Source of the DNA: an uncultured delta proteobacterium | GTDB taxonomy: Bacteria > Desulfobacterota > Binatia > UBA9968 | Direction: 5' to 3' | Assembly: GCA_963727625.1 (NCBI GenBank) | Contig: CAVSHR010000014.1 | Span: 32,889-96,888, forward strand | Length of the DNA: 64,000 bases | Part shown: piece by piece, positions 12,598-63,472 of the stretch | Position numbering within the stretch: the first letter of the stretch is position 1 | How the letters are laid out: each line of letters starts with the position of its first letter | Made by a program: the position numbers and the translations under genes | Notes under the pieces: model-generated | The model's input: only the letters and a program-made list of their open reading frames with translations | Database searches by the model: none | Told to the model about the DNA's origin: nothing

Positions 12598-12639
12598 ATG
12601 ATGCGCCGACTCAGCGGCGGTTGCTGTCTAATATTGGAC
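12598..12639 (-). promoter_or_regulatory. Crp-type box (12626-12639) plus -10 CATCAT
   Basis: Minus strand GTCCAATATTAGAC-N22-CATCAT. Confidence 0.75.
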
Positions 12640-12689
12640 ATTCTTGAAAAAGAATTTTCACGCCAATCTCACTTATTATTTACAAAAGC

Positions 12690-12731
12690 GTTCAAAATTA
12701 GACCGTAATCACCACCGCGGCAGGCTAGGGT
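12690..12731 (+). promoter_or_regulatory. Crp-type box plus -10 TAGGGT, upstream of nfeD-floA
   Basis: GTTCAAAATTAGAC-N22-TAGGGT. Confidence 0.75.
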
Positions 12732-12896
12732 CGCTCTGAAGGGAAATAACGGATCATGCGGGCGTGGTTTGCTCGGACCAATCGGCCTCCGGCTGAGCTT
12801 TCCCTATCTATATTTTGATTTATGGGTAGTGAAATTATAAGAAGGGGCGGCAGGATGTGCTATTTAAGAGCGGGACGGTAAAGAGCCGGTGGTATC

Positions 12897-14333
12897 TTGA
12901 TCCGAGCCGACGCTTGCGCCGCGGCAGAAGCGTGCTTCATGCGTGTGATTCAAAATCAAAGCAGATGGGCCGGATTACTGTCGATCGTCGGACTCGGCTT
13001 GATGGCCATGCTGGGATCGAGCGGGTTGGTCTTTGCGCAGAAGCCCACCGTGGTGGTTTACGTCGCGCCGATTGAGGGGATGATCGATCTCGGGCTCGCG
13101 CCTTTCGTTCAGCGGGTTTTAAACGAAGCAACACGAGCAGGCGCCGCGGCGGTCATTCTCGAGATCAATACCTTCGGCGGCCGCGTCGATGCGGCTGTGC
13201 TTATTCGTGACGCTTTGCTGAACGCCCGGGTGCTGACCGTGGTCTTCGTCAACAAAAGAGCCATTTCTGCCGGGGCGCTGATCAGTTTGGCCGCCGAGAA
13301 AATCGCGATCGCCAACGGCGGAACCATCGGCGCCGCAACGCCGGTGCAAATGGGGCAGCCGGGCGCACCCGCGCAGCCAGTGGCAGAGAAGACGGTTTCC
13401 TATGTACGAAAGGAGTTTCGCGCCACCGCCGAGGCGCGAAAGCGTCCTCCGCTTATCGCCGAGGCGATGGTGGATGCGGATGTGGAAATTCCCGGCCTCA
13501 TTCAAAAAGGCAAGCTGCTGACGCTCACCACCGAGGAAGCTTTGAAGCATAAGGTTGCGGATTTTCGCGCCGAGACTATCGATAGTGTATTGGAACAGCT
13601 AGGTCTTGCGGGAGCACAGGCCAGGCGGGTGGCGCCCAACTGGGCGGAGGGCCTTGTCCGCTTCCTAACCGATCCCATTGTCAGTTCGCTACTCATGACC
13701 GTCGGAATGATCGGCATCTTTCTGGAAATCCGCACGCCCGGCTTTGGCTTGCCGGGTGCGCTCGGTATCGCAAGCCTCGGGCTTTTCTTTTGGGGCCATT
13801 GGCTGGTTCAGCTTGCGGGCTGGGAAGAGCTGTTGCTGGTGGCGTCTGGGTTTATGCTTCTGGTCCTAGAAATTTTTGTTATTCCAGGCTTTGGTCTCGC
13901 CGGAATCTTTGGGATCGGCGCGCTCCTCGCCGGCCTTGGCCTGAGCCTGATCGGCGGCGGCGCCACCTGGGAGTTCGTCGCCCTGGCGATGGGGCAAGTG
14001 TTAATTTCAGTCTTTTTGGCCCTCGCGGCGAGCCTCTTGGTGCTGCGTTTCTTACCGCGCCTGCCATTTGGGAGGCAGCTGATCCTGCAAACCGGCCTTG
14101 CCGCGGGCAAGGGGTATGCTTCGGCGCCAGAGAGCGATAACAAATGGCTTGGCAAAAACGGCACGGCGTTCTCGCCGCTGCGACCGGCGGGGATCGCGGA
14201 GATTGACGGTGAGCGTGTGGATGTCGTCTCCGACGGCGAATTCATCGATGCCGGAATGGCGATTGTGGTGACCCGCGTCGATGGCAATCGGATCGTCGTG
14301 CGGCGACACCGCAGCTTAACAGAAGGGAGTTGA
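12897..14333 (+). CDS. nfeD: Long NfeD family membrane-bound serine protease-like protein (YqeZ/NfeD1b type); start probably 12939
   Basis: [21 protein letters not shown] ClpP-like domain, TM region, C-terminal LRPAG...[12 protein letters not shown] fold. Confidence 0.92.
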
Positions 14334-14334
14334 A

Positions 14335-15315
14335 ATGGGTGGTCTCGAAACCGGATTAACCGGCGGTTTCGCGCTGCTATTGATGCTGATCGTGGGGTTG
14401 GTTTTTGTCTTGTACCTGGTCCCCATCCCGCTCTGGATTGCCGCTTGGGCATCGGGGGCATACGTCGGGCTCTTCACGCTCATCGGCATGCGCCTGCGCC
14501 GAGTGCCGCCCGGCACCGTGATCACGGCGCGGATAAGCTCGGTGAAAGCCGGTTTGGACATTCCCCTCAACGATCTCGAAGCCCATTATTTGGCCGGCGG
14601 CAACGTTGTCAGGGTCGTGAACGCCATGATCTCCGCGGACAAGGCGAATATTCCCTTGGTGTTTAAGCGGGCCGCCGCCATCGACCTGGCAGGGCGCGAT
14701 GTCTTGGAAGCGGTGAAGATGTCGGTCATTCCCAAAGTTATCGAAACCCCGAAGATCGCCGCCATCGCCAAAAACGGCATCCAGCTCATCGCAGTTTCTC
14801 GTGTCACGGTCCGCACGAACATTGACCGGCTGGTGGGCGGCGCCGGCGAGGAGACCATCATTGCCCGGGTTGGAGAAGGCATGGTGAGCACCATCGGCTC
14901 CGCCGAATCGCACAAGGACGTTCTCGAAAACCCCGATCATATTTCTAAGCATGTGCTTGGCAAAGGATTGGACGCCGGGACCGCCTATGAGATTCTTTCG
15001 ATCGATATCGCGGACGTCGACGTGGGCGACAACATCGGCGCCAAGCTGCAAATCGATCAGGCCAACGCCGATAAGCAAATCGCTCAAGCCAAGGCCGAAG
15101 AGCGGCGCGCCATGGCCGTGGCTTTGGAACAAGAGATGCGGGCGCGCGTGGTCGAGGCGGAAGCCGAAGTCCCGCGCGCCATGGCCGAAGCTTTTCGCCA
15201 AGGCAATCTCGGCATCATGGATTATTACCGCATGAAAAACGTTCAAGCCGACACGTCGATGCGCGATGCCATCGCGGAGAGCGACGACGATCCGTCGACG
15301 GGCCAGAAACGCTAG
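14335..15315 (+). CDS. floA: Flotillin-like protein FloA (YqfA family)
   Basis: [46 protein letters not shown]. Confidence 0.95.
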
Positions 15316-15340
15316 GCTCAAGTCGCTTTAGGGGATTGTA

Positions 15341-15685
15341 ATGAACAATTTTAGTGTCGGACTGATCATCCTCCTGATGCTGTTCATTTTGATACCGCTG
15401 GCTAATTATGTCCTGAAGCGAATGCAACGGCGATTCGAACAGCCCGGTCCGGCGCGGCAACCGATGCCGGATATGGGCGTCCGCAGGCAGGCGGCGCGGG
15501 TGGCCACGCCCGCATCCGCCGCCCCTCGCGAACGAACACAGGCGGCGCCACCCGACCCCATAGTCGCGTCACCGCGAAGCCGCTGGTCGAGGAAGACGCT
15601 ATTCAGAACCCGGCGCGATGTGCGGCGGGTCATTGTCGCGATGACGGTCCTGGGACCCTGCCGTGCTTACGACCCACCCGGCTAG
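15341..15685 (+). CDS. Hypothetical membrane protein in the YqfB position of the nfeD-floA operon
   Basis: N-terminal TM segment; C-terminal VRRVIVAMTVLGPCRA resembles YqfB-type tails. Confidence 0.6.
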   Translation: MNNFSVGLIILLMLFILIPLANYVLKRMQRRFEQPGPARQPMPDMGVRRQAARVATPASAAPRERTQAAPPDPIVASPRSRWSRKTLFRTRRDVRRVIVAMTVLGPCRAYDPPG

Positions 15686-16203: not shown

Positions 16204-16402
16204 AGCTTACCTCCTCACGATCGATTGTCATTAGATTCATCGAGTGTGCGCTTTTATTCGCGTGCATGAAAGAGCGTCCCTCCGCTCAAGAGAGCCAAAT
16301 TTTGGACCTCAAGCGGTTACTCTGAGTTATCGCGCGGTTAAGAGGCCACGGCTCTGACGGCAGATTGGCCCAACATTGTCTGTGATAATTCTTTTTCAAT
16401 CG

Positions 16403-16444
16403 ATTCAATATGAGACGGCAACTCGGCGATCGGTCGACTAAGCT
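16403..16444 (+). promoter_or_regulatory. Degenerate Crp-type box plus -10 TAAGCT
   Basis: ATTCAATATGAGAC-N22-TAAGCT with T-rich upstream flank. Confidence 0.5.
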
Positions 16445-16603
16445 CAGCTGGAAACAAGGACAACTTAACGACCCTTGCACTAGCAATACTCCCGCAGCCA
16501 CTAGAGCATAAGCGATGGGGCGTCGTTGTTTTATAGTTCCCGATTCTATCTGGCTAAAACGCCTCCAGGATAAAATTATTAGGCAGTCATTGTTTGTAAA
16601 GCC

Positions 16604-16645
16604 GTCCACTATTGGACAGCAATCATCGCCAAGTCCGCATAGGGT
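16604..16645 (+). promoter_or_regulatory. Crp-type box plus -10 TAGGGT
   Basis: GTCCACTATTGGAC-N22-TAGGGT. Confidence 0.7.
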
Positions 16646-17166
16646 GGCGTGGGCTCGATCTGGTTGATTTCGAGCTTTGCGTATTGGTGTGGAATTTAGC
16701 TTTATATTTTAGGATGAACAACGACTACTGAAACACAGCCCGGAACGAGTATTGGGTTCAAGCCGGCGCAAACAGTACGCCCGGCCTTCTGGCTGGTGCT
16801 TAGCGGCGTGACGCTGTTTCAAGTATTCGGCCAGGGCGACACCATGCAGAAAGCGCGCGACAGTATCTTCGATCAGATTCAGAGCGAGTGTAGGTCGCGG
16901 GTTATTGAGCTCATCCACAGGCAGGAGAATCAGAGTCTACTATTTGGCGTACAAGTATCGACCACAAGTCTTCTCCCCGATCGCGATTGCTTGATCTCTG
17001 AATTTTGTCAACCTTGCGATTTCTCGCCCTCCCATATTGTCAACAGTGAGAAGTCTGAGAACGTAAACGTCGGAAGAATCACGCAATTCCAAACAGCAGG
17101 AACCTTGCATCGAAATTGCTCTACGTAGGTAGACAAAGGGGTAGCCATACCAAGGAGGAGGTCAAA

Positions 17167-17394
17167 ATGAAAAAATTAATGTTGGGGTTGGTGATGCTAG
17201 TTGGTCTTGGTCAAAGCGGTTGCATGTTCTTGGGGGGAGCGGCATTAGGCGCCGCCGGCACAGGAGGCGCTTACGAATATAACGCCCATCAGCAGATGGA
17301 GAAGCTGGACGCGGATTATAAAGCCGAGAGAATTTCTCGCGCAGAATACGACGCGCGGAAAAAACAGATTGAGGCAGGATCGATCATTTATTAA
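17167..17394 (+). CDS. Small glycine-zipper lipoprotein (paralog of 39871)
   Basis: AGGAGG RBS, lipobox-like QSGC, ends GSIIY. Confidence 0.85.
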   Translation: MKKLMLGLVMLVGLGQSGCMFLGGAALGAAGTGGAYEYNAHQQMEKLDADYKAERISRAEYDARKKQIEAGSIIY

Positions 17395-18981: not shown

Positions 18982-19758
18982 ATGCTGATGATTCAACGGA
19001 CTCCTGGAGCCGACCCGTTCAAAGAGCAACTGCGTGAGTCCTTGCAGCGCGAGGCGGTAAATTCCCGCGCCGTCACGATTGCCCGGCACGCCAACGTCTA
19101 CAGCTGCGGCGACCAAGACCAGACGGTCTACTTCATTGAGAGCGGCCAGATCAAACTGCTCATGCTCTCGCCCGAGGGTAAAGAATGCCTGCTCGCCATC
19201 CACAGCGCGGGAGATATTTTCGGCGAGTTATGTCTATCCGGCTCGGGCTCGCGACCGGAAACCGCCACCGCGATGGAAGAAACGGTTTTAAAGAAAATGC
19301 CATACGGCCAGTTTTTCGAACGCTTGAGCCGGGACGGGCTGCTTGAGGGGTTTGTCAGATACCTGGCCCTGCGCATCGCCGAGCAACAGCAGGTGATCGC
19401 CAATCTGGTGACGGTGGACAGCGAGCAGCGCTTGGGTAAGACGCTGTTGCAGTTGGCGCGCACGCTGGGCAAGAGAGACCAACGGAGCACGCGCATCGAG
19501 CTGAAGATATCCCATGAAGAGTTGTCCGAGATGGTCGGCACGACGCGGCCGCGGATCAGTTTGTTTATGCAACGCTTTCGCAACCTCGGGTTGATGGCGA
19601 GCAACCTGGATCGCTTTCTGGTTGTTGATGAAAAGAAGCTCACCGATTATCTGGCTCGGATTGCCATCGCCCCCGGGCGGGTCTGCGCCCGTCGCAATAC
19701 TTCTATTCAGAATCGTTCAGAATTGGACAGAGATCTCTTGGGAGTCAGGGTAAGTTAA
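18982..19758 (+). CDS. Crp/Fnr family transcriptional regulator (copy 1, C-terminally extended)
   Basis: YFIESGQIKL, GDIFGELCL, R.ETATA, HTH HEELSEMVGTTRPRISLFM. Confidence 0.95.
   Translation: MLMIQRTPGADPFKEQLRESLQREAVNSRAVTIARHANVYSCGDQDQTVYFIESGQIKLLMLSPEGKECLLAIHSAGDIFGELCLSGSGSRPETATAMEETVLKKMPYGQFFERLSRDGLLEGFVRYLALRIAEQQQVIANLVTVDSEQRLGKTLLQLARTLGKRDQRSTRIELKISHEELSEMVGTTRPRISLFMQRFRNLGLMASNLDRFLVVDEKKLTDYLARIAIAPGRVCARRNTSIQNRSELDRDLLGVRVS
19715..19756 (+). promoter_or_regulatory. Crp-type box plus -10 TAAGTT, upstream of DUF3309
   Basis: GTTCAGAATTGGAC-N22-TAAGTT. Confidence 0.72.
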
Positions 19759-19781: not shown

Positions 19782-19931
19782 ATGGGACTGATATTGTTGA
19801 TCGTCTTACTTCTCCTGGTGTTTGGCGGTCTGCCCAACTGGGGATATCACTCCTATGGTTACGCTCCCTCGGGCATCCTGGGGACGATACTGATTATCGT
19901 CCTGATTCTGTTCTTGTTGGGCCGAATTTAA
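19782..19931 (+). CDS. DUF3309 family small membrane protein (49 aa, not in ORF track)
   Basis: MGLILLIVLLLLVFGGLPNWGYHSYGYAPSGILG...LLGRI. Confidence 0.9.
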   Translation: MGLILLIVLLLLVFGGLPNWGYHSYGYAPSGILGTILIIVLILFLLGRI

Positions 19932-20122
19932 GGGTGCTCGGGGTCTCGTAGGGTCTAGTGGCGATACCCACAAAACATCGCCGCAAACCTCTACGAAGGG
20001 TGAACCGAAGGCTTGTTCAAACAAATCGAAATCCATGGACAGCGAGGTATAGCTTTCAACGGCAAGAGGAAAAATCGGTTCAGGTAGTAGCGGAGGTGTG
20101 GCATTTCAACTGGGAGACTCAG

Positions 20123-22144
20123 ATGAAGACATTAAAGCTCATTTTAGTGGCGCTGGCGGTATTTCTACTGCCCAGATACGCCCATGCATTGGATCTCGGT
20201 TCCGTGCGCATCAGCTATTTGGACGGCGAAGTCCAGATGAGGACAGCCGAGACGGGGGATGACTGGGTTCCTGCTGCTGTAAACACGCCTCTGATAGAAG
20301 GGGACGAGTTATGGGTGCCGGAGGGAGGAAGGCTTGAATTCCAGCTCGAGACCGGGACCGCCGTAAGGCTGGACCAGAATTCTGCATTGCAGATCCTGAC
20401 ACTGGACAGGGCTTCTTCGCAGTTTTATCTGACCGAAGGACATGCCTACGTGGACCACAACTCGCCGCGCGGCAACCTGATCCAGATCGACACGCCGGTG
20501 GCGTCCCTGCGCGCCTATGACAGATCAATTTTTAGAGTAGATGTCCCTGACCAATATACCGATGTCTCGGTGTTCTCCGGTTCGGTGGACGCCGAAGGAA
20601 GGTATGGCAGGACGCGGGTGAGCGCGGGACGGACCCTGACGCTCGGAGACGACAGAGACGCGGAACTCGCGCTGAACGGCCGAGCCGATGAGTGGGAAAA
20701 CTGGAACAGGCAACGGGATACGCGATTTGCCTCACGAGGAGACAGTTACCGCTACCTCCCCGATGAACTGCGGGTCTACGCCAGCGATTTGGATGATAAT
20801 GGAAGGTGGGTGCAAGTACCGGAATACGGTTACGTATGGATTCTCAGAGCGGTTGCAGCGGACTGGGCGCCCTATCGGACGGGGAGATGGATGTGGCGAG
20901 GCGGAGATTATGTCTGGATATCCTATGAGTCCTGGGGCTGGACACCCTATCATTACGGCAGGTGGTCCCATGATCCCCGTATCGGATGGTTTTGGGTGCC
21001 GCCGCGGCGGGGCCAGGTCTACTGGGGGCCGGGATATGTCGGGTGGGTCAGGACGGCTAACTACGTCGCGTGGGTGCCGCTTGCACCGCGGGAGATCTAC
21101 TATGGCTATGGCAATTACGGCCCAAACAGCGTGGACCTAAGAAAGCGCAATGTCAGGGAGATCAACATAACAAAAATCACTTATCGAAATGTCCGGGTGA
21201 CCAATAGCGTGACGGTCATCAACCATAATACCTTCGTGACCGGACGGCGCGAAGCGGTCAATGTGAGAGAGAACCCCTTCGTGACCGAGAAAGTAAACAT
21301 CGGCCGGCCCGATATAAAACCAGAAAGAGCGAGCTATGCCCCGGTGGTAAGGACGATCGAGCCTGCCAAGCGGCCGCCGCAGGAAGTCAACAGGATAGCG
21401 GTGAAAGAACTAAAGCAAGAACGGCAGTTGGTGAAAGAGCAGAATCGGTCCGTGATCCATAAGGGTCAGCCGGTAAAAGCCTTGGCCGTAAAGACCGTGG
21501 AGCAACCGAAGAGCCCAACGGAAAAAGTGCAGGAGCGCAAACAGAGGGGCACGAGTGCCGCACCAGGGGAACGCCCCCGCGTGAAGGGCGATGAAAAGTC
21601 TGCAAGCCCCAGCGCAGCCACTGAGACAAAGGAGACTACAGGCCGCGGACAGTCAAGCCGAGAGCCGGCGGTAAAGCAACCGGCCGGCGCTCGTGCAAAA
21701 CCGCCAGAGCGCCAGCCTCAGCCGGAGAAGGGTAAGACCCAAAAAGCCGTGGAAAGCCCCAGAGCAAAGCCCGAGACAAGGGTCGAAAAGCCGGTGAAAG
21801 CCGAGGACAAGCAAAAACCAAAAGCACCTCAAGCAAAGCCCGAGTCCAGAGTGGAACCAAGGGCCAGGAAAGCCGCAGAGGCAAAACAAAAGCCTGGAGG
21901 AGCGCCAAGCAAAGCGCCCGCGATGATCGATAGGAAAGCCGAAAGGCCATCAGGCCCTGTAGAAAAGGCAAAGGCAGCGGCGGCTCCGGCCAAGGCCGCT
22001 GAGGCCAAGGGTGAAGTAAAGGGCGGCAAGCAGACTGTCGCAGAAAAGAATCAATCAAGGGAAGAAAAGAAGGCCACCAAAGATGGGCTGGAAGGCAAGG
22101 GAAAATCCGACGAGACAAAAGAAGAGAAGATCGAGAGAAGATAG
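20123..22144 (+). CDS. Secreted FecR-like plus DUF6600 domain protein with K/E/P/A-rich disordered tail
   Basis: Signal peptide ending YAHA; N.PL.EGD.LW; W/Y-rich WAPYRTGRW..WGWTPYHYGRW repeats. Confidence 0.85.
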   Translation: MKTLKLILVALAVFLLPRYAHALDLGSVRISYLDGEVQMRTAETGDDWVPAAVNTPLIEGDELWVPEGGRLEFQLETGTAVRLDQNSALQILTLDRASSQFYLTEGHAYVDHNSPRGNLIQIDTPVASLRAYDRSIFRVDVPDQYTDVSVFSGSVDAEGRYGRTRVSAGRTLTLGDDRDAELALNGRADEWENWNRQRDTRFASRGDSYRYLPDELRVYASDLDDNGRWVQVPEYGYVWILRAVAADWAPYRTGRWMWRGGDYVWISYESWGWTPYHYGRWSHDPRIGWFWVPPRRGQVYWGPGYVGWVRTANYVAWVPLAPREIYYGYGNYGPNSVDLRKRNVREINITKITYRNVRVTNSVTVINHNTFVTGRREAVNVRENPFVTEKVNIGRPDIKPERASYAPVVRTIEPAKRPPQEVNRIAVKELKQERQLVKEQNRSVIHKGQPVKALAVKTVEQPKSPTEKVQERKQRGTSAAPGERPRVKGDEKSASPSAATETKETTGRGQSSREPAVKQPAGARAKPPERQPQPEKGKTQKAVESPRAKPETRVEKPVKAEDKQKPKAPQAKPESRVEPRARKAAEAKQKPGGAPSKAPAMIDRKAERPSGPVEKAKAAAAPAKAAEAKGEVKGGKQTVAEKNQSREEKKATKDGLEGKGKSDETKEEKIERR

Positions 22145-24476: not shown

Positions 24477-24665
24477 CGGCGGTCGAGTTCTTGCCTAGCC
24501 GGCCAAGGCATCATGGCGCAAAAACAGATGCAATGGCTTATTTGCCATCTCTTCGGTTTCTTGCCACCAAAATTGGTCAGATTTTGACCCAGTTCGATCT
24601 CCACGGCAGTCCACGCACTCAAAACCGGTGCCGGCGTGCGTGAAGCCCAGAATTTTTCAAAAACC

Positions 24666-24707
24666 GTTCAATATTAGACTGAAACTATCTCAGCGCCCGC
24701 GTATTTT
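24666..24707 (+). promoter_or_regulatory. Crp-type box plus -10 TATTTT, upstream of the response regulator
   Basis: GTTCAATATTAGAC-N22-TATTTT. Confidence 0.78.
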
Positions 24708-24742: not shown

Positions 24743-25204
24743 ATGGGTAATGCCTGGTTCAGAGGAGAGCCGTTGAGATCAGAAAAAATACTGGTTGTCG
24801 AAGATTCTTTTGATCTTCGCGAGATTCTCGGAAAACTTTTTGCATCCTTGGGATGGGATCCCATCCTTGCCGAGAGCGGCCGGAAAGCGTTGGAGAAACT
24901 CGAGCACGAAACGCCGAAAATTATTCTCCTGGACATGCGGATGCCGGAAATGAACGGCTTCGAGCTCGCGAGAATCCTAAAAACACATCGTGTTTACAGG
25001 AACATACCGATACTTGCTGCCACCGCGTTTCCCGACCACATCGCCAGGCGGCAGTGTCTTGCGGCCGGCTGCAATGATTTCATTTCTAAGCCTTTCTCGT
25101 TTGCCGCGCTCCAAGCGAGTCTTGCAAATCTAGTGTCCGGAGAAAGACCAAATATCGTTCCTGTTCCTTTAAGTGAAAGGCAGCAGCATGAAATTCAGTC
25201 ATAA
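24743..25204 (+). CDS. Single-domain response regulator (receiver)
   Basis: ILVVED, LLDMRMPEMNG, ATA, FISKPF. Confidence 0.92.
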   Translation: MGNAWFRGEPLRSEKILVVEDSFDLREILGKLFASLGWDPILAESGRKALEKLEHETPKIILLDMRMPEMNGFELARILKTHRVYRNIPILAATAFPDHIARRQCLAAGCNDFISKPFSFAALQASLANLVSGERPNIVPVPLSERQQHEIQS

Positions 25205-30528: not shown

Positions 30529-30720
30529 GATGGCTTCGCCATAATCAAAATCAATTAGACTGGCGTCGTCGGCGGCAGAGGACAGGATTGGGAATCAACA
30601 GCAAGTTAAGTAGGTCGCCGCGAATCGAGAACTGAACGGACCACTCACGCGAAACGATTCCAAACGGTTCGCCCCATCGCACGTGAAAGTAGGGGAAAGC
30701 AAAGATTCTTCCTAGATATC

Positions 30721-30762
30721 GTCCAGTATTGGACAGCAAACCAACTTAACTTGAGCGAGTAT
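30721..30762 (+). promoter_or_regulatory. Crp-type box plus -10-like GAGTAT, upstream of csbD
   Basis: GTCCAGTATTGGAC-N22-GAGTAT. Confidence 0.68.
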
Positions 30763-33702: not shown

Positions 33703-33788
33703 TGCCGATGCTCAATAGGTCCAAAGATATTTAGGTAAAAGAGCCCCGTTAGGGGAGTCCAGGACCGGTGAAGTTTTTTTTTCGATTG

Positions 33789-33830
33789 GTCTCTTATTGG
33801 ACAGAACTATTTAACTCGACCGGGTATTTT
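33789..33830 (+). promoter_or_regulatory. Crp-type box plus -10 TATTTT
   Basis: GTCTCTTATTGGAC-N22-TATTTT. Confidence 0.72.
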
Positions 33831-39139: not shown

Positions 39140-39181
39140 ATGATGCGCTTTCTCGGCGACCGGTGCTGTCCAATATTGAAC
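39140..39181 (-). promoter_or_regulatory. Crp-type box (39168-39181) plus -10 CATCAT
   Basis: Minus strand GTTCAATATTGGAC-N22-CATCAT. Confidence 0.78.
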
Positions 39182-39427
39182 AATCCCTAAAATAATTTCT
39201 ACAGCGCCGCTTTACACGATCGGGCGACAATAAACAGAAGATCCCGTGCGGATTGTCAATGCGCGGCCGGCGGAAAATGCCGGAGCGACATCCCATCTCC
39301 TGTGCGGCAAACCGTCGCTCCGTTCCCGGTGCTTGATCGGTCCGCTAGCCTTTGAGAGATCGCGACACCGGACTTCTGCTGGCCGCCGATCGGGATTGCT
39401 TGATAGTACAAATCGTTCTTTTTCGGT

Positions 39428-40520: not shown

Positions 40521-41201
40521 ATGATTCAAGAGACTCCCGAAGCGGAACGCTTCAAGCTGCAAATGCGCGATTCCTTGCGGCGCGAGACGTTAAACTCTCG
40601 CGCCGTAACGATTCCGCGGCACGGGAATGTATACACCTGCGGCGACCAGGACGAGATGGTTTACTTCATCGAAAGCGGCCAGATCAAGCTGCTGCTGCTT
40701 TCTCCCGAAGGTAAGGAATGTTTGCTCGCCATTCATGGTGGCGGCGATGTTTTCGGCGAGTTGTGCTTGGCCGGGTTGGGCGCGCGGCACGAAACCGCGA
40801 CGGCGATGAAAGCAACCAAGTTAAAGCAAATACCTTGCGCACAGTTCTTTGCGCGCTTAAGCCATGACCGGTTGTCCGAGGGATTCGTGCGCTATCTGGC
40901 GGTGCGCATTGCGGACCAACAGCAGGTGATCGCGAATCTTGTCACGGTGGACAGCGAACAGCGGCTGGGCCAAACCTTGTTGCAGTTGGCCCGCACCATG
41001 GGCAAAAAGGACCCGCGCAGTATCCGCATCGAACTGAAGATCTCCCATGAGGAATTGTCGGAGATGGTCGGCACGACGCGGCCTCGGATCAGCGTCTTCA
41101 TGCAGCGATTTCGCAACCTCGGATTGATCGAAACCAACAGCGATCGTTTTCTCATCATCAAGGAAAGCAAGCTCACCGATTACCTTGCGCAGATCGCCTA
41201 G
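40521..41201 (+). CDS. Crp/Fnr family transcriptional regulator (copy 2)
   Basis: Closely similar to 18982; HTH HEELSEMVGTTRPRISVFM. Confidence 0.95.
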   Translation: MIQETPEAERFKLQMRDSLRRETLNSRAVTIPRHGNVYTCGDQDEMVYFIESGQIKLLLLSPEGKECLLAIHGGGDVFGELCLAGLGARHETATAMKATKLKQIPCAQFFARLSHDRLSEGFVRYLAVRIADQQQVIANLVTVDSEQRLGQTLLQLARTMGKKDPRSIRIELKISHEELSEMVGTTRPRISVFMQRFRNLGLIETNSDRFLIIKESKLTDYLAQIA

Positions 41202-45517: not shown

Positions 45518-45564
45518 CCTTGGGGAATTTACCAGCCGCACACAGAGCGAATTTGTTTTTGATG

Positions 45565-45606
45565 GTCTCTTATTGAACAGCAATTCCCATCGATGCGCTA
45601 TATATT
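45565..45606 (+). promoter_or_regulatory. Crp-type box plus -10 TATATT
   Basis: GTCTCTTATTGAAC-N22-TATATT. Confidence 0.72.
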
Positions 45607-47591: not shown

Positions 47592-47635
47592 CGGCTGCGC
47601 TGGCTTATGGACTGCGCGATATTTGTTTTAAAATC

Positions 47636-47677
47636 GTTCAATATTGGACAGCATTCCCGCCTGAAATAGAGCACTAT
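47636..47677 (+). promoter_or_regulatory. Crp-type box plus -10 CACTAT
   Basis: GTTCAATATTGGAC-N22-CACTAT. Confidence 0.78.
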
Positions 47678-48105: not shown

Positions 48106-48139
48106 AAAGGGGAAGGGAATGCAACCTTCCCCTTTTTTT
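48106..48139 (+). terminator. Rho-independent terminator
   Basis: AAAGGGGAAGG-gaatgcaa-CCTTCCCC-T7. Confidence 0.85.
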
Positions 48140-49689
48140 GTGACATGTCGGACCGATCCAAAACCGCAAATTCAGGAACTCACTAGTCCTGAAATAAGCG
48201 CCAAGCGTCTAAAAGTATGCATGGTCGGTTCATAGGGAGATCCTTGACGGTTCGTAAGCCCATCATGAGCATGCGTTTATATCACAAATCGGAGCCAGTC
48301 GGATGTTGTTGGACGATGAACCGAGGTCGAGAGTGATTTTGAGCGCAGCGCGGCGTGCGTCGGCCCGCGGGAGCAGCCGGATGAGGTCGCGTCGCAACCG
48401 TCTGTTAGGTCTGCAATCGAGCATGAGCGGCGAGGATGTCGGGCAAATACCGATGCGATCCGGCCAGCCGCACCACCAAGCTTCTGCCGAGCTTGAGAAC
48501 CTTGGCCGCAATGTAGACAAAGTGGCGGCGAAAGCGCTTCCACTCCCAGCGCACTACCTCCTCGGGCAAGACCAGTTGGGCGATCCACTTGCCCAGATTC
48601 CACGCCAGCCGAGCTATTTCCAGCCACGCCGAGTTGCCCATAAACTCCGCCACCGGCATGCGCCACCCCGCAATGCCGTGACCGAATTGCTCGATGAGGT
48701 TTTCCTGGTCGCAGCGCTGATAGGTCAGATCGACGACCCGCTGAGCCGTGTAAGAACGCGGCAGATCGCTCAGCACCAACCGGTAGCGGAAATGGCGAAA
48801 GAGCACTCCCTGACCATCGCACTCTTCAATCAAAATCCGCCGCACGATCAGGCGACACGGAAAGGGCACCCCGGCGGGCTGATAGTCGATCTCGCTGATC
48901 CACTGCTGAAGCGTGCTCAACGTGCGGTACCCTCGCTGTTGGGCTTTGGTTTTGCGGTAGTTGGGGGTGCGCCCCTCACGACTAGACCCGGCTGGCTTGT
49001 TGCGCTCGGCGCGCGGACAAAATCGCTGCCAACGCTTCTCCGCAATCGCCTCGGCCAGCGCGGCGCGATTGGGATGCAGCTTGGCCCCAATGGCAAAGTA
49101 CGCCCCCTGCTCGATCACCGCCTGGTACACGTCGGCCCGATCAAAGTCGGTATCGCCCCGCACAATGGCGCTTTTGAAATGGCGCTTCACCCGTGGCAAA
49201 ACTTCCTTGAGAGCCTCGGCGGCGCCGTCCGCAGCATGCCCGCTGCCTGGCTGATTGACCACCTTGAGGCACTCCCCACTGCCACCCAGCGTCACCACCA
49301 ACGGCTGATACGACCAACGCCCGTCGTAGCTAAAATCCGCCCCTCTTTCTGCACCCCGTACAGGGGCTTGATGTGACCATCGAGATCCACCAGCGCCATC
49401 TCGTGCTTCTTCCTGTGACGACGTACCGGGGCGGGCAACTTCGACCACACCGCCTCTTGCACCTCGTCGCCCACCCCACTCAACTGCTCCAAATCTTGTG
49501 CGCTCTTAAACCGACGCAGAAAATCTCCCGCCGTCGTCGGGTCCGGAATCCGACACGCTCCCACCAGTCTTCGAATCGCCTCGCTCCCTTGCAGCACCGC
49601 CTGGTCCTCCAGACATGTCCCATCGGCATAAAGCGTGTACATCAGCGCCAGCACATGGTCCGACTCAAAGTAGGGGGCATGACGCCTAA

Positions 49690-51174
49690 CAGCCCGTGGT
49701 AGAAGTCCGATTTTTACAAAACGCATGGGATCGCGGCGAAGCGGTGACTTGGGAGCGCAAATAGTCTCAGGTCGAGTCCTCGGCGCCGATGAGCGGTTAG
49801 TTGGTCGCGCAGTAGCACCCACAGAGTAAAACAGATAGCCAGTACGGCGGCAAAACGGCCCTGTAGACCGCGTGGCGTTCCAATTCCCGTCAACGTGCGC
49901 ATCCACAGGCCCAGATTGCAGGCCGCTACGTGCACGAGTAGCCGTTTGAGAATATTGCCGTGCCCGCGCAGATGAGTCCGGCGCATGCCGCCGGTCTCGT
50001 AGAGATGCGCATTGGGTCGCTCTAACAACTCACCTCGTTGCCGCATCAATAGCTGCCCACGCTCGCCTCGAATGCGCCGCCGATTGGCATACACCGCGTC
50101 ACGCTCAGCCTGCTGACCCTTCCAGTGCTGCCGGCCGCGATCCGGTTCACTGATGTAGGTGCGCAGTCCTAGGTTCTGCATATCGAGCACGGTTTGCTTA
50201 CTGTGATAGCCCTTGTCGGTGACCACTTCCTTGCCTATCTTCACCTTGTCGTCGATGATCGCAGCCACCGCTTCTAATTGCTCGATTGCCTCAGGCAGCG
50301 TCGTCTGGATCGTGGTCGTGTCGCCTTGATCGGCTTCCTGCAGCGTGACCGCCACGATGGCACCGGTCTCCAGGTCCACGGCATGCTCGGCTTTGTGCGC
50401 TAAATGGGTCCGTCCGTCCTTCATCTTGGCGATCCGTGCGTCGGGGTCATGCGGATGTTCCCAGTCCTGGTTAGATCCTTTCTTCTTACGTTTGCGATCC
50501 AACTTCGCCAGATCGGCTCGCGTTGGGGTCTCAATGCCGGATTCCTCAGCCAGCTTGGTCAAAAACTCGTTATAGCTCTCCCCGGTGTCGCGGCGCACGA
50601 TGCTGCGCAAGGCCGCGTTCGCTTCGAGCGTGGTAGCATCGATCGCCAGCGTTTTCCCTTTGATGAGTCCGGCGATGCCCAGACACTGAAGTACCCATGT
50701 GAACACCGTCCGATGGGTTTCCAAATCGATCAATCGCCGAGTCCGCGATATCGTCGAATGATCCGGTGCACACTCGGTCAGCCCCAGCTCAAGGAACGAT
50801 CGCACTCCCGAGGAGTCCGCCGCGCGCCACGCCATGGCGCGTTCAGAGTCCAGGCATTCGAAGTAGCCAAGTAATAGAAAACGGAAATATCGTCCAGGCG
50901 CCAGACTGGGCCGCCCCATCTTCTCGGCATAGAACGCCCGGCACTGCGCTTCGACAAACTCGTCGAACCCATGCTTGGCCAATAACCCGTTGAGCTTCTC
51001 GTAGAACGGGTGGCTCACAGACTTCGGCAGCTCGCTCACTCCCACCCACATCGCTCTCTGCTCTTCGTGTTTTCGTTGTCCCATCGCCATGCAAAAAATT
51101 CTACACGATCTATCGTTCCTGTCGACTACTCTCCATCACTCTCCCACTTCATTCTCGACTTTCACCACGGGCTG
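49690..51174 (-). mobile_element. IS1182/IS5-like insertion sequence (1485 bp)
   Basis: 18-bp IRs CAGCCCGTGGTAGAAGTC and GACTTTCACCACGGGCTG; 4-bp target duplication CTAA (49686-49689 and 51175-51178). Confidence 0.92.
49714..51090 (-). CDS. DDE transposase with DUF772-like N-terminal domain
   Basis: GRPSL.P, SER, PDHSTISRTR, IDATT, DKGYHS, ERPNAH. Confidence 0.92.
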   Translation of the reverse strand: MAMGQRKHEEQRAMWVGVSELPKSVSHPFYEKLNGLLAKHGFDEFVEAQCRAFYAEKMGRPSLAPGRYFRFLLLGYFECLDSERAMAWRAADSSGVRSFLELGLTECAPDHSTISRTRRLIDLETHRTVFTWVLQCLGIAGLIKGKTLAIDATTLEANAALRSIVRRDTGESYNEFLTKLAEESGIETPTRADLAKLDRKRKKKGSNQDWEHPHDPDARIAKMKDGRTHLAHKAEHAVDLETGAIVAVTLQEADQGDTTTIQTTLPEAIEQLEAVAAIIDDKVKIGKEVVTDKGYHSKQTVLDMQNLGLRTYISEPDRGRQHWKGQQAERDAVYANRRRIRGERGQLLMRQRGELLERPNAHLYETGGMRRTHLRGHGNILKRLLVHVAACNLGLWMRTLTGIGTPRGLQGRFAAVLAICFTLWVLLRDQLTAHRRRGLDLRLFALPSHRFAAIPCVL

Positions 51175-51586: not shown

Positions 51587-51848
51587 GCCTCTCATCGGTC
51601 CATTCTCGGAGCCATGTCATACAAACCGGGCGCAAGCGCGAAGCCGTTCAAGCAAACGAAGGAACAATCTAACTTGGTGTCGCAGTCCTTGGGTTTTTCA
51701 TTGTCGGCGACCACCGACGGAGGTCGCCGCAACGCTTCGCGACCGAGTTGCCTGATAAATCAATCGAAATCCCGCGATTATTGCCGCGCGCCTTTTGCCA
51801 AGCCAATTAATCGCGGTTGCGACCCTCGTACAGTTTCTTTTCAAAGTG

Positions 51849-51890
51849 GTCTAAAATTAGACAGTAATCCGATCAAGGACGGCGCAGGAT
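51849..51890 (+). promoter_or_regulatory. Crp-type box plus -10 CAGGAT
   Basis: GTCTAAAATTAGAC-N22-CAGGAT. Confidence 0.75.
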
Positions 51891-51922
51891 GTAAAGCAAA
51901 CTGATTGCATTCTGAGGTACAG

Positions 51923-52510
51923 ATGGAAACGATAGATAGCCAAACATGGATAATCCTTGCAGTGGTTGTGGCCGTTGCTTTGACGGCGGTGGGAGCCTTT
52001 TTCTACCGGCGTAAGCAGTCCCATACGCTGCAAAAACATTACGGCGCTGAATATGATCGAACCGTGGTTGAGTTGGGGAGTCGCACCAAGGCCGAATCGG
52101 AACTCAAGGCGCGCGAGAAGCGCGTCGAGCGGCTCGAACTTCTCCCGCTGCCGGCGCCGGAAGCGGCGAGATTCGCTCAGGCCTGGCAAGAGTTACAAGC
52201 CCGATTCGTCGACAACCCCAAGGGGGTGGTGGTCCAAGCCGAACAGCTGGTTCGTGAATTGATGGAAAAGCGGGGTTACCCGATGGGTGATTTCGAGCGG
52301 CGTGCGGGGGACATTTCGGTCGATCACCCGGAGGTTGTGGCAAATTACCGGGCGGCGCAGGCGATTGCGGAGCGCGATCAAGGTGGATCGGCGGACACCG
52401 AGGAGTTGCGCAAAGCGGTTGTGCATTACCGCGCCCTTTTCGATGAGCTGCTCGAGGTAAGAGAGCCGAAACAAGAGATCGTCGCAGAGAAGCGCATCGC
52501 GGCGCGATGA
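51923..52510 (+). CDS. Conserved hypothetical membrane-anchored helical protein
   Basis: N-terminal TM; YGAEYDR, W..LQARFVDNP, M..RGYP, TEELR.A.VHYRALF. Confidence 0.85.
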   Translation: METIDSQTWIILAVVVAVALTAVGAFFYRRKQSHTLQKHYGAEYDRTVVELGSRTKAESELKAREKRVERLELLPLPAPEAARFAQAWQELQARFVDNPKGVVVQAEQLVRELMEKRGYPMGDFERRAGDISVDHPEVVANYRAAQAIAERDQGGSADTEELRKAVVHYRALFDELLEVREPKQEIVAEKRIAAR

Positions 52511-52541: not shown

Positions 52542-52746
52542 ATGGACCGAACTTACAAAAAAGTTGAAATCGTCGGCAGTTCAGAGACCAGCTTTGGCGA
52601 CGCCACTCAAAATGCCATAGCCAAGGCCTGCCAGTCGCTGCGCCATGTGGACTGGTTCGAGGTGACCGGAAATGCGCGGGTTGGTTGAAAAGGACAAAGT
52701 CAAGGAATTCCAGGTCACCGTGAAGATCGGCTCTCGGCTTGAAGGC
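52542..52746 (+). pseudogene. Dodecin (flavin-binding) gene, frameshifted near 52668
   Basis: MDRTYKKVEIVGSSETSF.DA..NAI..A..SLRHVDWFEV, then EMRG.VE...VKEFQVTVKIGSRLE in the next frame. Confidence 0.88.
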
Positions 52747-52843: not shown

Positions 52844-53179
52844 ATGAAAATATTATTCTTGGTCTTGGCAATTTTTGCCGGTCTCGGTCAATGGGGATGT
52901 AGCGGTTCCTTTTCCTGGGGAGACGGCGCCACCAGTCGGTCGGGAGCCAGACTCCAGACCGTCGATGGCAGGGTGGAGCGGGTGGATGTCCAGCGCAGCA
53001 CCTTCGAAGTGCGCGATCAGTTTGGCAAGCGGGTCATCGTTTCTCTCCGCGCCGACGCACGGAGTTCGGACGTCGATCGTTTACGGGGCCTTCGGGAGGG
53101 CGATTACGTCAGAGTCGAGGGGCGATTCCTCGATCGGGAGCGTTTTGAGTTGGAGAATTTTCTTCGGGACAACCGTTAG
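52844..53179 (+). CDS. Lipoprotein with one beta-rich domain (paralog of the C-half of 33953)
   Basis: QWGC lipobox; LQTVDGRVERVD...GDYVRVEGRFLDRERFELENFLRDNR. Confidence 0.82.
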   Translation: MKILFLVLAIFAGLGQWGCSGSFSWGDGATSRSGARLQTVDGRVERVDVQRSTFEVRDQFGKRVIVSLRADARSSDVDRLRGLREGDYVRVEGRFLDRERFELENFLRDNR

Positions 53180-53369
53180 CCGGATTACCATGGGCGTTGC
53201 TTGAGCGGATGACCGAAAGGCGATGGGATTCCTTCGAAGGGGCGACTTTTGAGTTCTCAGTTGTCCTATCGTAAAAGCGAGTTCCTATCGTTTAGCCCAC
53301 GCTCATAAAGTGGACGGCCTAGGCACCTCGCGGGCCGACAATCCGCTTAACTCTCGATGCGAAGGCGAT

Positions 53370-59185: not shown

Positions 59186-59199
59186 AGTTTCATTCCTGA

Positions 59200-59225: not shown

Positions 59226-59266
59226 CTGACTTAACGTTTAACCGGTCCAACCAATGGAGATTGGAG

Positions 59267-60146
59267 ATGAGAAAATTAATATTGGCGTTAATGGTGATTG
59301 TGGCTCTGGGTCAATGGGGGTGTAACAGCGCACTCTGGGAAGACTTGGTCACAGGTCAACCTGACCAACGCGATCTCGTGGCAGAGGTGGAGCGGGTAGA
59401 TACTTCGCCTCAGGAGATCCATTTACGAGAGAATAGTGGTCGCACCAGTATGGTAGGTTATGATGCCAGCACCCGGGTAATTTATCGTGGGCGTGAATAT
59501 TCAGTCAACCAACTAGAGGCCGGGGATATCGTGACCGTGGAACTGAAACGGGGCCTTCTGGGGAAATCTTATGCGAATTTGATCCGCGTCCAAGAAAAAA
59601 TTCGGGATCGGGGCGGTATTACTACCAGGCCAGGAGCCGGAATCCAGACGGTCGATGGGACGGTGGAGCGGGTAGATACTTCGCCTTGGGAGATCCGTAT
59701 ACGAGAGAGCAGTGGTCGCACCAGAGTGGTCACTTATTATTCCGACACCCGGGTGGTTTATCGCGGGCGTGAATATCCGGTCACCCAATTAGAGGCCGGG
59801 GATATCGTAACCGTGGAAGTGAAAGAGGACTCTCGTGGCAACTCCTATACGAATTTGATCCGCGTCCAAGAAAGTGTCCGGGATCGGGGCGGTATTACCA
59901 CCAGGCCAGGAACCGGGATCCAGACGGTCGATGGGAGAGTAGAGCAGGTGGACTTCCAGCGCGGCTCCTTCGAAATGCGCGGCCAGTCGGGAGAAGAGGA
60001 TATTCGTTTCTCTCCCGTACAACGCGAGGAGATCGGATGTCGATCGTTTCCAGGGGCTTCGGGTTGGCGATTACGTCAGGGTCGAGGGGCGATTCATCGA
60101 TCGGGAACGCTTCGAGTTGGAGACTTTTCTCCGGGACAATCGGTAG
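59267..60146 (+). pseudogene. Three-domain lipoprotein (33953 family) with 276-bp internal tandem duplication and a frameshift near 59995
   Basis: Repeat units 59386-59661 and 59662-59937. The conserved tail ...EGRFIDRERFELETFLRDNR* is in another frame, ending 60146. Confidence 0.8.
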
Positions 60147-60184
60147 CTGCTTTACCCGTGGCATTGAGCTGATCATTGAGAAGG

Positions 60185-62742: not shown

Positions 62743-62774
62743 GGCAACGCGCGCCACGACGCTGCAAAATCACG

Positions 62775-62804
62775 CCGAGGCGACCGCATGGGCGGTCGCC
62801 TCGG
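62775..62804 (+). other. Perfect 13-bp stem hairpin upstream of the csbD RBS
   Basis: CCGAGGCGACCGC-ATGG-GCGGTCGCCTCGG with no U-tract. Confidence 0.6.
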
Positions 62805-62825
62805 TAGACAAAAGGAGGAACGGCA

Positions 62826-63017
62826 ATGAGTGGAAAAACCGACCAGATCAAAGGGCGGATCAAAGAGACGGCGGGTGTATTAACGGATAACGAGCGCCTG
62901 AAACGAAAGGGAAAGCTCGATCAGGTGGTGGGGAAAGTGAAGGAGACGGCGGAGAAGGCTGTGGATAAGATGAAAGACGCTTTGACAAGCAACAAATCCC
63001 GTGGCCGCGCCAAGTAG
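62826..63017 (+). CDS. CsbD family protein (copy 2)
   Basis: DQIKGRIKETAGVLTDNERL..KGK.DQVVG. Confidence 0.9.
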   Translation: MSGKTDQIKGRIKETAGVLTDNERLKRKGKLDQVVGKVKETAEKAVDKMKDALTSNKSRGRAK

Positions 63018-63178
63018 TAATTTCGCGCCCGGCTGCAATGCTTTGCTCGCGGTGTTGCGACTGCCCCGGATCGGCTGTCCGATCTGTACGCGTCCTACCG
63101 TGAGATTATGAACAGGCGATGTGACGGTTGGTGCGTGCGGTATTACCGACCACACTGCTCACATAAGGAGATGAACAA

Positions 63179-63334
63179 TTGAACCTGACAAAAAACTTGG
63201 GGATGCTCTTGTTGGGCATCTGGCTCATCCTGACAGGCTTACTGCAAGTCATTACCGTTCAAATTCCAGCCATTGGTACGATACTGGCTCTGCTTGCTAT
63301 CGTTGCCGGCGCATTGATTCTGGTAGGTCGGTAA
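63179..63334 (+). CDS. 51-aa two-TM membrane protein (not in ORF track)
   Basis: AAGGAG RBS with TTG start; KNLGMLLLGIWLILTGLL...LAIVAGALILVGR. Confidence 0.78.
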   Translation: MNLTKNLGMLLLGIWLILTGLLQVITVQIPAIGTILALLAIVAGALILVGR

Positions 63335-63430
63335 AACGTTCGATCTTCCGGAAGCACACTGCTTGCCTAGTACAAATTGCCCAGCGCGGCTGCGCCGGCT
63401 TATGGACTGCGCGATATTTGTTTTAAAATT

Positions 63431-63472
63431 GTCTAAAAGTAGACAGCAATCCCATCTGATACAGAGCACTAT
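63431..63472 (+). promoter_or_regulatory. Crp-type box plus -10 CACTAT
   Basis: GTCTAAAAGTAGAC-N22-CACTAT. Confidence 0.75.

Follow-up and report, generated by a model that had tools for sequence, protein, structure and literature searches.

A candidate activator-dependent promoter module of a general-stress-like regulon, probably bound by an unnamed Crp/Fnr subfamily, in Binatia-like bacteria

CRP sites read TGTGA-N6-TCACA and FNR sites TTGAT-N4-ATCAA, with an N-terminal cysteine cluster holding the iron-sulfur centre of FNR, and at class II-type promoters the C-terminal domain of the polymerase alpha subunit docks at about -62 to -51. Closest in layout to the system described here are the NtcA sites, which in the excerpted text of PMC3898017 are given as GTAN8TAC with its centre some 41.5 nt before the start, and at which, according to the excerpt of PMC11850224, NtcA R186 bonds the G that lies 7 bp from the dyad, while V187 and T190 clamp the neighbouring T. 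Closest in role are DdrI from Deinococcus radiodurans and SdrP from Thermus thermophilus, which the excerpted part of PMC11253593 presents as multi-stress regulators of the CRP family that are reported or suspected to be cyclic AMP (cAMP)-independent. Here, we analysed a 64,000-nucleotide stretch of DNA (hereafter the window) from an uncultured delta proteobacterium (GTDB lineage Desulfobacterota; Binatia; UBA9968), namely positions 32,889 to 96,888 of contig CAVSHR010000014.1 in assembly GCA_963727625.1. The window holds 13 copies of a promoter module built around a 14-bp palindrome (the box) with a -10 hexamer 22 nt further on, and we read these, with a probability of roughly 0.6, as activator-dependent class II promoters of a general-stress-like regulon that would be bound by a Crp/Fnr subfamily other than CRP, FNR or NtcA.

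A first-pass annotation of the window had listed 13 boxes of the form GTY-N8-RAC and 13 hexamers, and on re-extraction each of them was found exactly in its place, with every hexamer 22 nt 3' of its box. The pattern itself fits 12 of the 13 boxes, the box at 16403 having the degenerate first base (A) already pointed out. In the window, the box never has A as its third base, which is always C or T (A occurs in 1 of 150 sites from the related loci described below), all 13 hexamers have A at position 2 and T at position 6 (A38 and T42 of the module), and the dyad lies 29.5 nt 5' of the first tAnnnT base in 13/13 window sites and in 104/149 locus sites. The AGYAA said to be usual on the 3' side is exact in only 6/13 sites, though its G16 (13/13) and A18 (12/13) do hold. 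When the 13 sites were aligned from -44 to +124 to delimit what is conserved, the unit came to about 56 bp, which is longer than the 14-mer plus the hexamer, and comprised a T-tract (-13..-7), an A-tract (-5..-2), the palindrome (1-14), A15, G16, A18, A19, several G/C-rich spacer positions, A38, and T42. In order, the module thus reads T-tract, A-tract, GTYCAATATTGRAC, AGCAA and, 22 nt on from the palindrome, tAnnnT.

How far the motif exceeds background depends on how much of it is asked for. The loose GTY-N8-RAC is by itself not enriched in the window (65 matches against 56.2 +/- 7.1 in shuffles, with 15 of 100 shuffles reaching 65), whereas the tighter GTYYNNWWKTRRAC with at most one mismatch gives 38 matches against 16.4 +/- 4.5, a count that 0 of 100 shuffles attain, and the full module also stands far above shuffled sequence. 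With a weight matrix made from positions -13..+20, and so leaving out the -10 element, the 13 sites reach 31-46 bits, whereas no other window position exceeds 8.6 bits; under leave-one-out, the sites score 20.9-42.5 bits, against a best of 17.2 bits in 20 shuffles of the window. By this matrix, the window contains no weak or intermediate sites, and its first 12.6 kb has no site at all. A box-like match at 2545-2558 (13.0 bits for the 14-mer) was set aside as it lacks the flanking elements and is at chance level, since shuffled DNA yields 8-14 such matches in every 957 kb. Each of the 13 sites would probably be a complete and directional promoter cassette of about 56 bp. The modules, with the open reading frames (ORFs) that follow them, and the two Crp genes of the window are as follows.

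Module 1: 12598..12653, minus strand; box 12626-12639; -10 CATCAT at 12598-12603; 42.5 bits; divergent from module 2; followed on the minus strand by a 60-aa Cys-rich ORF (12560-12378) and a 127-aa ORF (12430-12047).
Module 2: 12676..12731, plus strand; box 12690-12703; -10 TAGGGT; 38.2 bits; putative targets NfeD (12897-14333), the flotillin FloA (14335-15315), and a 114-aa ORF.
Module 3: 16389..16444, plus strand; box 16403-16416, with A as first base; -10 TAAGCT; 34.1 bits.
Module 4: 16590..16645, plus strand; box 16604-16617; -10 TAGGGT; 39.7 bits; precedes ORFs at 16796-17128 and 17116-17394 (small lipoprotein-like).
Module 5: 19701..19756, plus strand; box 19715-19728; -10 TAAGTT; 37.7 bits; within the 3' end of the Crp1 frame; putative targets DUF3309 (19782-19931), then FecR/DUF6600 (19958-22144).
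Module 6: 24652..24707, plus strand; box 24666-24679; -10 TATTTT; 39.1 bits; putative target a stand-alone response-regulator receiver (24743-25204).
Module 7: 30707..30762, plus strand; box 30721-30734; -10 GAGTAT; 32.7 bits; putative targets CsbD-like (30829-31041), then an Iron_permease family protein (31131-31619).
Module 8: 33775..33830, plus strand; box 33789-33802; -10 TATTTT; 37.1 bits; putative targets a 214-aa lipoprotein-like ORF (33935-34579), BON (34736-35047), and YtxH-like (35092-35394).
Module 9: 39140..39195, minus strand; box 39168-39181; -10 CATCAT at 39140-39145; 39.7 bits; putative target a 40-aa lysine-rich ORF (39065-38943, minus strand) with a strong ribosome-binding site.
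Module 10: 45551..45606, plus strand; box 45565-45578; -10 TATATT; 31.1 bits; putative targets a 56-aa membrane ORF (45670-45840), then a LapA-domain protein (45939-46319).
Module 11: 47622..47677, plus strand; box 47636-47649; -10 CACTAT; 46.5 bits; copy A of a duplicated block; putative target a collagen-repeat lipoprotein (47772-48071).
Module 12: 51835..51890, plus strand; box 51849-51862; -10 CAGGAT; 43.5 bits; putative targets a 201-aa membrane-anchored ORF (51905-52510), then dodecin (52542-52688).
Module 13: 63417..63472, plus strand; box 63431-63444; -10 CACTAT; 43.5 bits; copy B of the duplicated block; putative target a second collagen-repeat lipoprotein (63567-63884).
Crp1: 18982..19758, plus strand; Crp/Fnr family, helix GTTRPRISL; candidate box-binding regulator.
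Crp2: 40521..41201, plus strand; helix GTTRPRISV; paralogue, 77% identical to Crp1.

To look at the module in other genomes, we used an alignment of Crp1 and Crp2 as bait on a genome collection, and this gave 77 loci (957 kb) with homologues that are 66-81% identical. By label, these are metagenome-assembled genomes (MAGs) of Candidatus Binatia, of delta-proteobacterial names, and of Acidobacteriota (Blastocatellia, Pyrinomonadaceae), along with a few others, the nearest relatives by protein identity being the Binatia- and delta-labelled contigs. In fact, Crp2 is 92% identical to its homologue in a MAG labelled Binatia (L048), and many neighbour proteins are 70-93% identical. On these loci, the window matrix found 156 positions at or above 20 bits, spread over 65 of the 77, as against 0 in five shuffles (best 17.1 bits). 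Although the -10 had no part in the scan matrix, NANNNT appeared in the 149 unique sites at spacer 22 in 104 and at spacer 23 in 25, with mostly 0-15 at other spacers and a side peak of 55 at spacer 17 that arises from two partly conserved columns; the fixed box-N22-NAnnnT geometry first proposed for the window therefore generalises. Searched alone, the symmetrised 14-mer has 171 matches in the loci against 8-14 in shuffles, and among 123 of its matches that were oriented only by their -10, T occupies positions -10..-8 in 100-107, G16 is present in 110, and A18 in 105. The consensus of the module is identical across all groups of taxon labels, and in the locus sites the central AATATT of the palindrome is conserved no less than the box ends. 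Moreover, the crp strand carries 151 of the 156 locus modules, so the orientation of these gene islands is strongly one-sided. The module is confirmed as real and extends to independent sites in other genomes.

As to its likely function, a co-oriented ORF with a ribosome-binding site lies within 500 nt downstream of 140 of the 151 unique locus modules, mostly behind a leader of 15-200 nt. At a spacer of 16-18, the best match to TTGACA is at most 3/6 in 12/13 window and 149/151 locus modules, the -35 site reading CAGCAA or similar, and the -10 mostly matches TATAAT at 3-4 of its 6 positions; a sigma-70 consensus scan of 12-32 kb called none of the six modules there. Since no -35 resembles that of sigma-70 and the palindrome has two-fold symmetry, recruitment of the polymerase is probably the work of a dimeric activator, and a dimeric binder is likewise required by the near-invariance of G1, T2, and C14 (each 150/150 in locus sites) and A13 (148/150) within that symmetry. 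If transcription starts 7 nt past the hexamer, GTYCAATATTGRAC would be centred at about -41.5, and a dimeric activator sitting on it would make direct contact with RNA polymerase and so recruit it, in the way known from class II CRP, FNR, and NtcA promoters. The A/T-rich tract (TTnTTTT then AAAA), which would fall at about -62 to -51, may dock the polymerase alpha C-terminal domain, and AGCAA would take the place of the -35, followed by a partly conserved, G+C-rich spacer and by the weak -10 exactly 22 nt past the palindrome. As a pattern of sequence, then, a symmetric site at fixed spacing from a weak -10 and with the -35 missing is the signature of class II activation.

A palindrome in this position might also be an operator overlying the -35 region and bound by a repressor, be it Crp or another protein, in which case an UP-like A/T tract and the -10 would drive the promoter and stress would relieve the repression. 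The box spans about -48 to -35, a place from which a bound protein could exclude polymerase, the strong upstream T/A tract might provide basal activity without a -35, and some members of the Crp/Fnr family do repress. However, with -35 matches of 3/6 or less almost everywhere and -10 matches mostly of 3-4/6, these promoters look too weak to fire unaided, and their spacing is kept to one or two values, as for the face-of-helix contacts of an activator. Nor is the palindrome often met outside its promoter context, given that 136 of the 171 box matches have a -10 at spacer 22 or 23 and that chance would account for about 8-14 of the 171. Overall, we regard repression as quite improbable.

Rather than an activator, an alternative sigma factor could in principle read the element, taking the right half-site together with AGCAA (GGACAGCAA) as its -35 and the spacer or hexamer region as its -10, so that the left half-site would play no part. 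In other bacteria, sigma factors (sigma-S, sigma-B, EcfG) do drive general stress regulons, and AGCAA as well as the spacer positions T24, C27, T31, and G34 are conserved on the promoter side only. Against such a reading, the two half-sites are equally invariant, which calls for a two-fold symmetric binder, and GGAC is separated from tAnnnT by 22 nt, a distance exceeding the 16-18 nt between the -35 and -10 of sigma-70-family promoters. Moreover, Pfam scans of the window ORFs found no sigma-factor or anti-sigma domain, and neither sigma nor anti-sigma factors are among the recurrent neighbours in the loci. Two particular forms were looked at and dropped: for sigma-54 (TGGCAC-N5-TTGC), inspection of both strands by eye found no TGGCAC-like element properly spaced from TTGCT, the complement of AGCAA, and for the extracytoplasmic function (ECF) type (GGAC ... 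TCAGC), the spacer holds only 0.3-0.6 bits compared with 1.3 bits for A38. Altogether, an alternative-sigma promoter seems very improbable.

Turning to the candidate activator, Crp1 and Crp2 both match PF00027 and PF13545 above the cut-offs, which gives a beta-roll of the cyclic nucleotide monophosphate-binding type joined to a winged helix-turn-helix, and over their full length they match structures of GlxR, Mycobacterium tuberculosis CRP, CooA, NtcA, and CAP (E 1e-22 to 1e-12). Scores against named families are far lower than required, being 59.4 and 57.3 bits for the CRP model NF008732 (cut-off 266), 61.6 and 49.8 bits for the Fnr model NF008365 (cut-off 228), 51.7 and 58.5 bits for the NtcA model TIGR03697 (cut-off 244.95), 60 bits for the LdrP model (cut-off 300), and 59 for the PtrA model (cut-off 300; both NCBIfam). 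By these matches, the two proteins are members of the Crp/Fnr superfamily that fall below every curated NCBIfam cut-off compared. The recognition helix TRPRIS ascribed to the local Crp proteins is indeed there, both genes encoding GTTRPRIS, and among 79 homologues, which vary elsewhere in the protein, most positions of the helix MVGTTRPRIS show at least 97% conservation. A search of 1.84 billion representatives, clustered at 50% identity, matched 165 clusters at E 1e-30 or better. Among the best 150 of these 165 clusters, the R-x-R helix occurs in 113 (RSRxG 59, RPRxS 24, RPRxT 11, RTRxG 10, RPRxG 6, others 3), and the other 37 are off-pattern and mostly fragments. Judged by this search, the window proteins are part of a sizeable, unnamed Crp/Fnr clade.

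In the alignment, the R of the local R-P-R-I-S corresponds to NtcA R186 and the S to T190, with G1 and T2 of the box as the invariant outer bases, and the first Arg of the helix would thus recognise the invariant G:C pair at the outer end, in the manner of NtcA R186. With respect to the effector, the excerpt of PMC11253593 names the RS motif (R82-S83) and the TS motif (T127-S128), which along with E72 make the cAMP contacts of E. coli CRP. The alignments show the cAMP-contacting Glu to be kept in the local proteins, with RS replaced by R-H or R-L and TS by Q-Q, and control by a cyclic nucleotide is for that reason doubtful; the signal is probably not cAMP. The cysteines of the sensor domain (around 41, 67, and 82 in Crp2) show conservation among the 79 homologues, one being invariant, and this might, speculatively, hint at an effector that is not a cyclic nucleotide. 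The N-termini of Crp1 and Crp2 hold no FNR-type cysteine cluster.

A tie between regulator and module also comes from their positions. In 36 of the 77 loci, a module on the crp strand is found no more than 400 bp beyond the crp stop codon (at -37 to +283 bp relative to the 3' end of crp), much as at 19715 in the window, and module density behind crp rises to 12.8 per 10 kb, against 0.8-2.1 in the other distance bins (about 1.3 in the flanks). The window case is an overlap, the Crp1 frame being about 30 codons longer than that of Crp2, with its tail (19640-19758) running through the T-tract, box, and -10 of module 5, and in six other loci (L006, L020, L031, L040, L045, and L059) the box likewise lies 13-37 bp before the end of the Crp match. 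Because of the NtcA geometry, the coupling of crp and module, the invariant helix that parallels the box, and the structural match to NtcA, Crp/Fnr is the best candidate for the binder, and the most likely activator would be the Crp/Fnr subfamily whose genes lie in the same islands as the modules and whose helix GTTRPRIS is near-invariant. Several paralogues with this same helix may then feed different signals into one type of promoter. As an observation on copy number, three to four Crp copies are found within about 100 kb or on neighbouring contigs in L034, L041, and L053 (one contig) and in L024, L030, L032, and L042 (one MAG).

Several points weigh against this reading. All loci were fetched through Crp, so that the control is internal only, comparing density beside crp with that in the flanks. 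A box stands upstream of a crp homologue in just 1 of 83 cases, and the clue that autoregulation might have given is therefore missing; when the sequences upstream of crp were searched for a common motif, a conserved leader emerged and no box. In that leader (about 60 nt upstream; for example in L003, L009, L015, L017, and L022), a strong ribosome-binding site is joined by a hexamer resembling TATAAT some 30 nt ahead of the start codon, and crp seems to have an ordinary promoter, without autoregulation via the box. The equivalent of CRP R185 and NtcA R191 is Leu or Val in the local helix, and the fixed AATATT centre is unusual, since the centres of CRP-type sites vary. Nothing in this reading accounts for the conservation of AGCAA and of the spacer positions, which may reflect a further factor or a special sigma. 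The start site, and hence the -41.5 position, is deduced from the hexamer alone, so that of the class II placement proposed at first, the spacing is sound in the window and in most locus sites, and the value itself depends on the start lying 7 nt past the hexamer. Finally, conservation of the box before homologous genes is partial, with CsbD at 2/4, the 214-aa lipoprotein at 1/4, and BON at 2/9, and FtsH, CarD, and desaturase homologues carry a box in some loci, though not in the window.

Some of these same points would fit a promoter of the kind described whose palindrome is bound by a different dimeric regulator, of the GntR type, LuxR type, or another, with crp as a mere island resident or a member of the regulon. 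GntR-family operators are GT...AC palindromes with A/T-rich centres and LuxR-type activators sit near -42.5, which suits both the form and the position of the box, and the strongly conserved AATATT would be atypical of a CRP-like site; the rarity of a box before crp and a co-occurrence shaped by the Crp bait speak for it as well. Yet the ten-fold density spike behind crp is specific to crp and not merely to the island, the geometry equals that of NtcA, and the outer G and T are matched by the Arg and Ser of the helix. Moreover, no other DNA-binding family recurs in the 77 neighbourhoods to an extent comparable with Crp, the next family being present in at most 14 loci (Zn-ribbon protein 14, FtsH 12, CarD 10), and in the window, Pfam scans identified only Crp, CarD, and one Zn-ribbon protein as related to nucleic acids. 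We therefore deem a different regulator unlikely, and the original proposal that the box is the operator of the local Crp proteins draws support from the linkage and from the register of the helix Arg, with the near absence of a box before crp and the single bait standing against it. Beside this, we note a TFIIB-type zinc-ribbon protein (PF13453) at 11508-11924 on the plus strand, directly after FtsH, whose family is the commonest neighbour after Crp.

As regards what the modules would control, by ribosome-binding sites and Pfam the first genes downstream in the window encode CsbD-like and DUF3309 proteins, the 40-aa and 56-aa peptides, the collagen-repeat lipoproteins, a receiver, NfeD/FloA, the lipoprotein at 33935, and the 201-aa protein, and several of the small targets escape simple longest-ORF calling. 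In the loci, the first downstream ORFs include small or stress-related proteins (DUF5670, DUF3309, entericidin, CsbD, BON, dodecin, LapA, YflT, Ysc84, Fe/Mn superoxide dismutase) and further receivers, histidine kinases, FtsH, CarD, fatty-acid desaturase, and GlgB. CsbD, YflT, BON/OsmY-like proteins, entericidin, dodecin, DUF3309, and receiver-only regulators are typical of general stress regulons elsewhere. A box precedes 9 of 23 DUF3309 homologues, at 51-54 nt in 8 of them, and is also found before homologues of LapA (4/4), the 201-aa protein (3/3), the receiver (2/2), and the 127-aa ORF (2/2). One cis element thus stands before many unlinked stress-protection genes across genomes (13 modules in the window and 156 in the loci), as expected of a general stress response. 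By predicted gene content, this is a general-stress or dormancy-type regulon of small envelope and stress-protection proteins, and it is probably switched on by an uncharacterised branch of Crp/Fnr. On its own account, the dodecin ORF at 52542-52688 is 48 aa long, covers 39 of the 64 Pfam model positions, and may be truncated or frameshifted.

Module 3 is without a convincing target, having only a 50-aa ORF without a ribosome-binding site downstream, and the next module starts 200 nt on. Behind module 3 lies a weak terminator-like hairpin (16511-16527), and a small RNA at 16452-16545 was tried as the product and rejected, its folding being no better than that of shuffles (z -0.94). At gathering thresholds, Rfam found no RNA family anywhere in the window.

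Modules 11 and 13 belong to two near-identical blocks, 47562-48182 and 63357-64000, that represent a recent 621-bp duplication of a collagen-repeat lipoprotein gene with its promoter. The blocks differ by 17 substitutions, of which 11 lie within 33 bp (47635-47667, from box position 0 to spacer position 32), with one in the next 515 bp, and by an 18-bp indel in the Gly-X-Y repeat. The boxes at 47636 and 63431 do differ at 5 of 14 bases, exactly as first noted, and these five changes fall at degenerate positions or at T9, with G1, T2, A5, A8, T10, G12, A13, and C14 all kept. That this suggests selection holds in so far as the changes spare the invariant bases, but their clustering in box and spacer suits a conversion patch too, and the pattern would fit functional constraint or a short operator-spacer exchange between modules equally well. 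Among all modules, no convincing donor for such a conversion was found, the best agreeing at 25-26 of 34 positions where random pairs agree at 20.6 on average. As separate observations on repeats in this part of the window, a DDE transposase gene (DUF772 + DDE_Tnp_1; 49714-51090, minus strand) lies between the duplicated blocks, a 276-nt tandem duplication (84% identical) occupies 59386-59937 inside the ORF 59261-60172, and a dispersed 173-nt repeat (80% identical) links 53027-53199 and 59994-60166.

With 13 copies in 51 kb, a transposase gene at 49714-51090, and one pair within a recent duplication, the modules might be taken for copies of a small mobile or repetitive element, like a repetitive extragenic palindrome (REP) or a miniature inverted-repeat transposable element (MITE), with no regulatory role. 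Only 2 of the 13 copies have flanking DNA in common, however, and in the locus sites the information content is about zero beyond -17..+42. Every copy faces a downstream gene with a plausible leader length, the same module stands before homologous genes in different genomes, and Rfam offers no match. A mobile element is, in our judgement, scarcely credible.

As for what the cassette means, many Acidobacteriota and the Binatia-like bacteria, abundant soil organisms that are mostly uncultured, regulate their stress survival by means that are essentially unknown. The cassette is a sequence-only marker for a whole stress regulon, offers a candidate family of master regulators that can be expressed and tested in vitro, and reveals a target set with many tiny membrane proteins that gene callers overlook. 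As the module stands far above background, it is usable for annotating promoters and small genes in MAGs. If the assignment to Crp is true, it would mean a new DNA specificity for the Crp/Fnr family and a general stress response that rests on an activator, not on a sigma factor. A bolder version, which we put forward only tentatively and think rather doubtful, is that Binatia-like bacteria and Acidobacteriota run their general stress or dormancy response through an unrecognised Crp/Fnr clade (G-T-T-R-x-R, at least 165 clusters) instead of an alternative sigma, whose paralogues would share one DNA specificity, sense different non-cAMP signals (perhaps redox via the cysteines), and converge on a portable 56-bp cassette exchanged along with small stress genes. 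Searches of the literature with the box strings and helix peptides gave no relevant match, and topic searches gave nothing on the motif or on regulation in Binatia or Acidobacteria; to call the system not described rests on these searches only.

Set beside known systems, the module most resembles the NtcA promoters as far as the excerpted sources describe them, sharing the 14-bp palindrome, an outer G-T in each half-site, a centre that would here too lie at about -41.5, a bare TAnnnT -10, and a regulator from the Crp/Fnr superfamily in which the first helix Arg is conserved. In contrast, the local third and fourth positions are YC, not A-N, the AATATT centre is fixed, and there are the additional T/A tract, AGCAA, and conserved spacer positions. 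The local helix is R-P-R-I-S-L/V where NtcA has R-V-T-V-T-R, the regulon would serve stress and envelope functions and not nitrogen assimilation, and the hosts are Binatia-, delta-, and Acidobacteriota-labelled MAGs as opposed to cyanobacteria. Class II promoters of E. coli CRP and FNR are alike in having a Crp/Fnr-fold regulator (CAP structures at E 1.8e-12) and a site that overlaps the -35 of promoters poor in that element. Here, however, the box GTYCAATATTGRAC has only its outer G-T / A-C register in common with the CRP site and differs from the FNR site, and the local proteins are without the N-terminal cysteine cluster of FNR.

The stress role and cAMP independence of DdrI and SdrP, as excerpted from PMC11253593, match the type of the local regulon and the degenerate cAMP pocket. 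The relation to SdrP is a distant one (structure 2zcw at E 1.8e-5), and according to the same excerpt both proteins bind CRP-like sites, whereas the local system has several paralogues per genome and a fixed composite cassette. In gene content, the sigma-B, sigma-S, and EcfG regulons overlap with the local one (CsbD, YflT, BON/OsmY-like, entericidin, dodecin, DUF3309, and receivers). They differ in that the local promoters combine a symmetric operator with an ordinary tAnnnT and the window has no dedicated sigma gene, so that an activator would act in place of sigma replacement. On balance, this comparison describes what is probably a class II promoter system of the Crp/Fnr type, one whose box and regulator clade are both new and whose stress regulon belongs to poorly known phyla.

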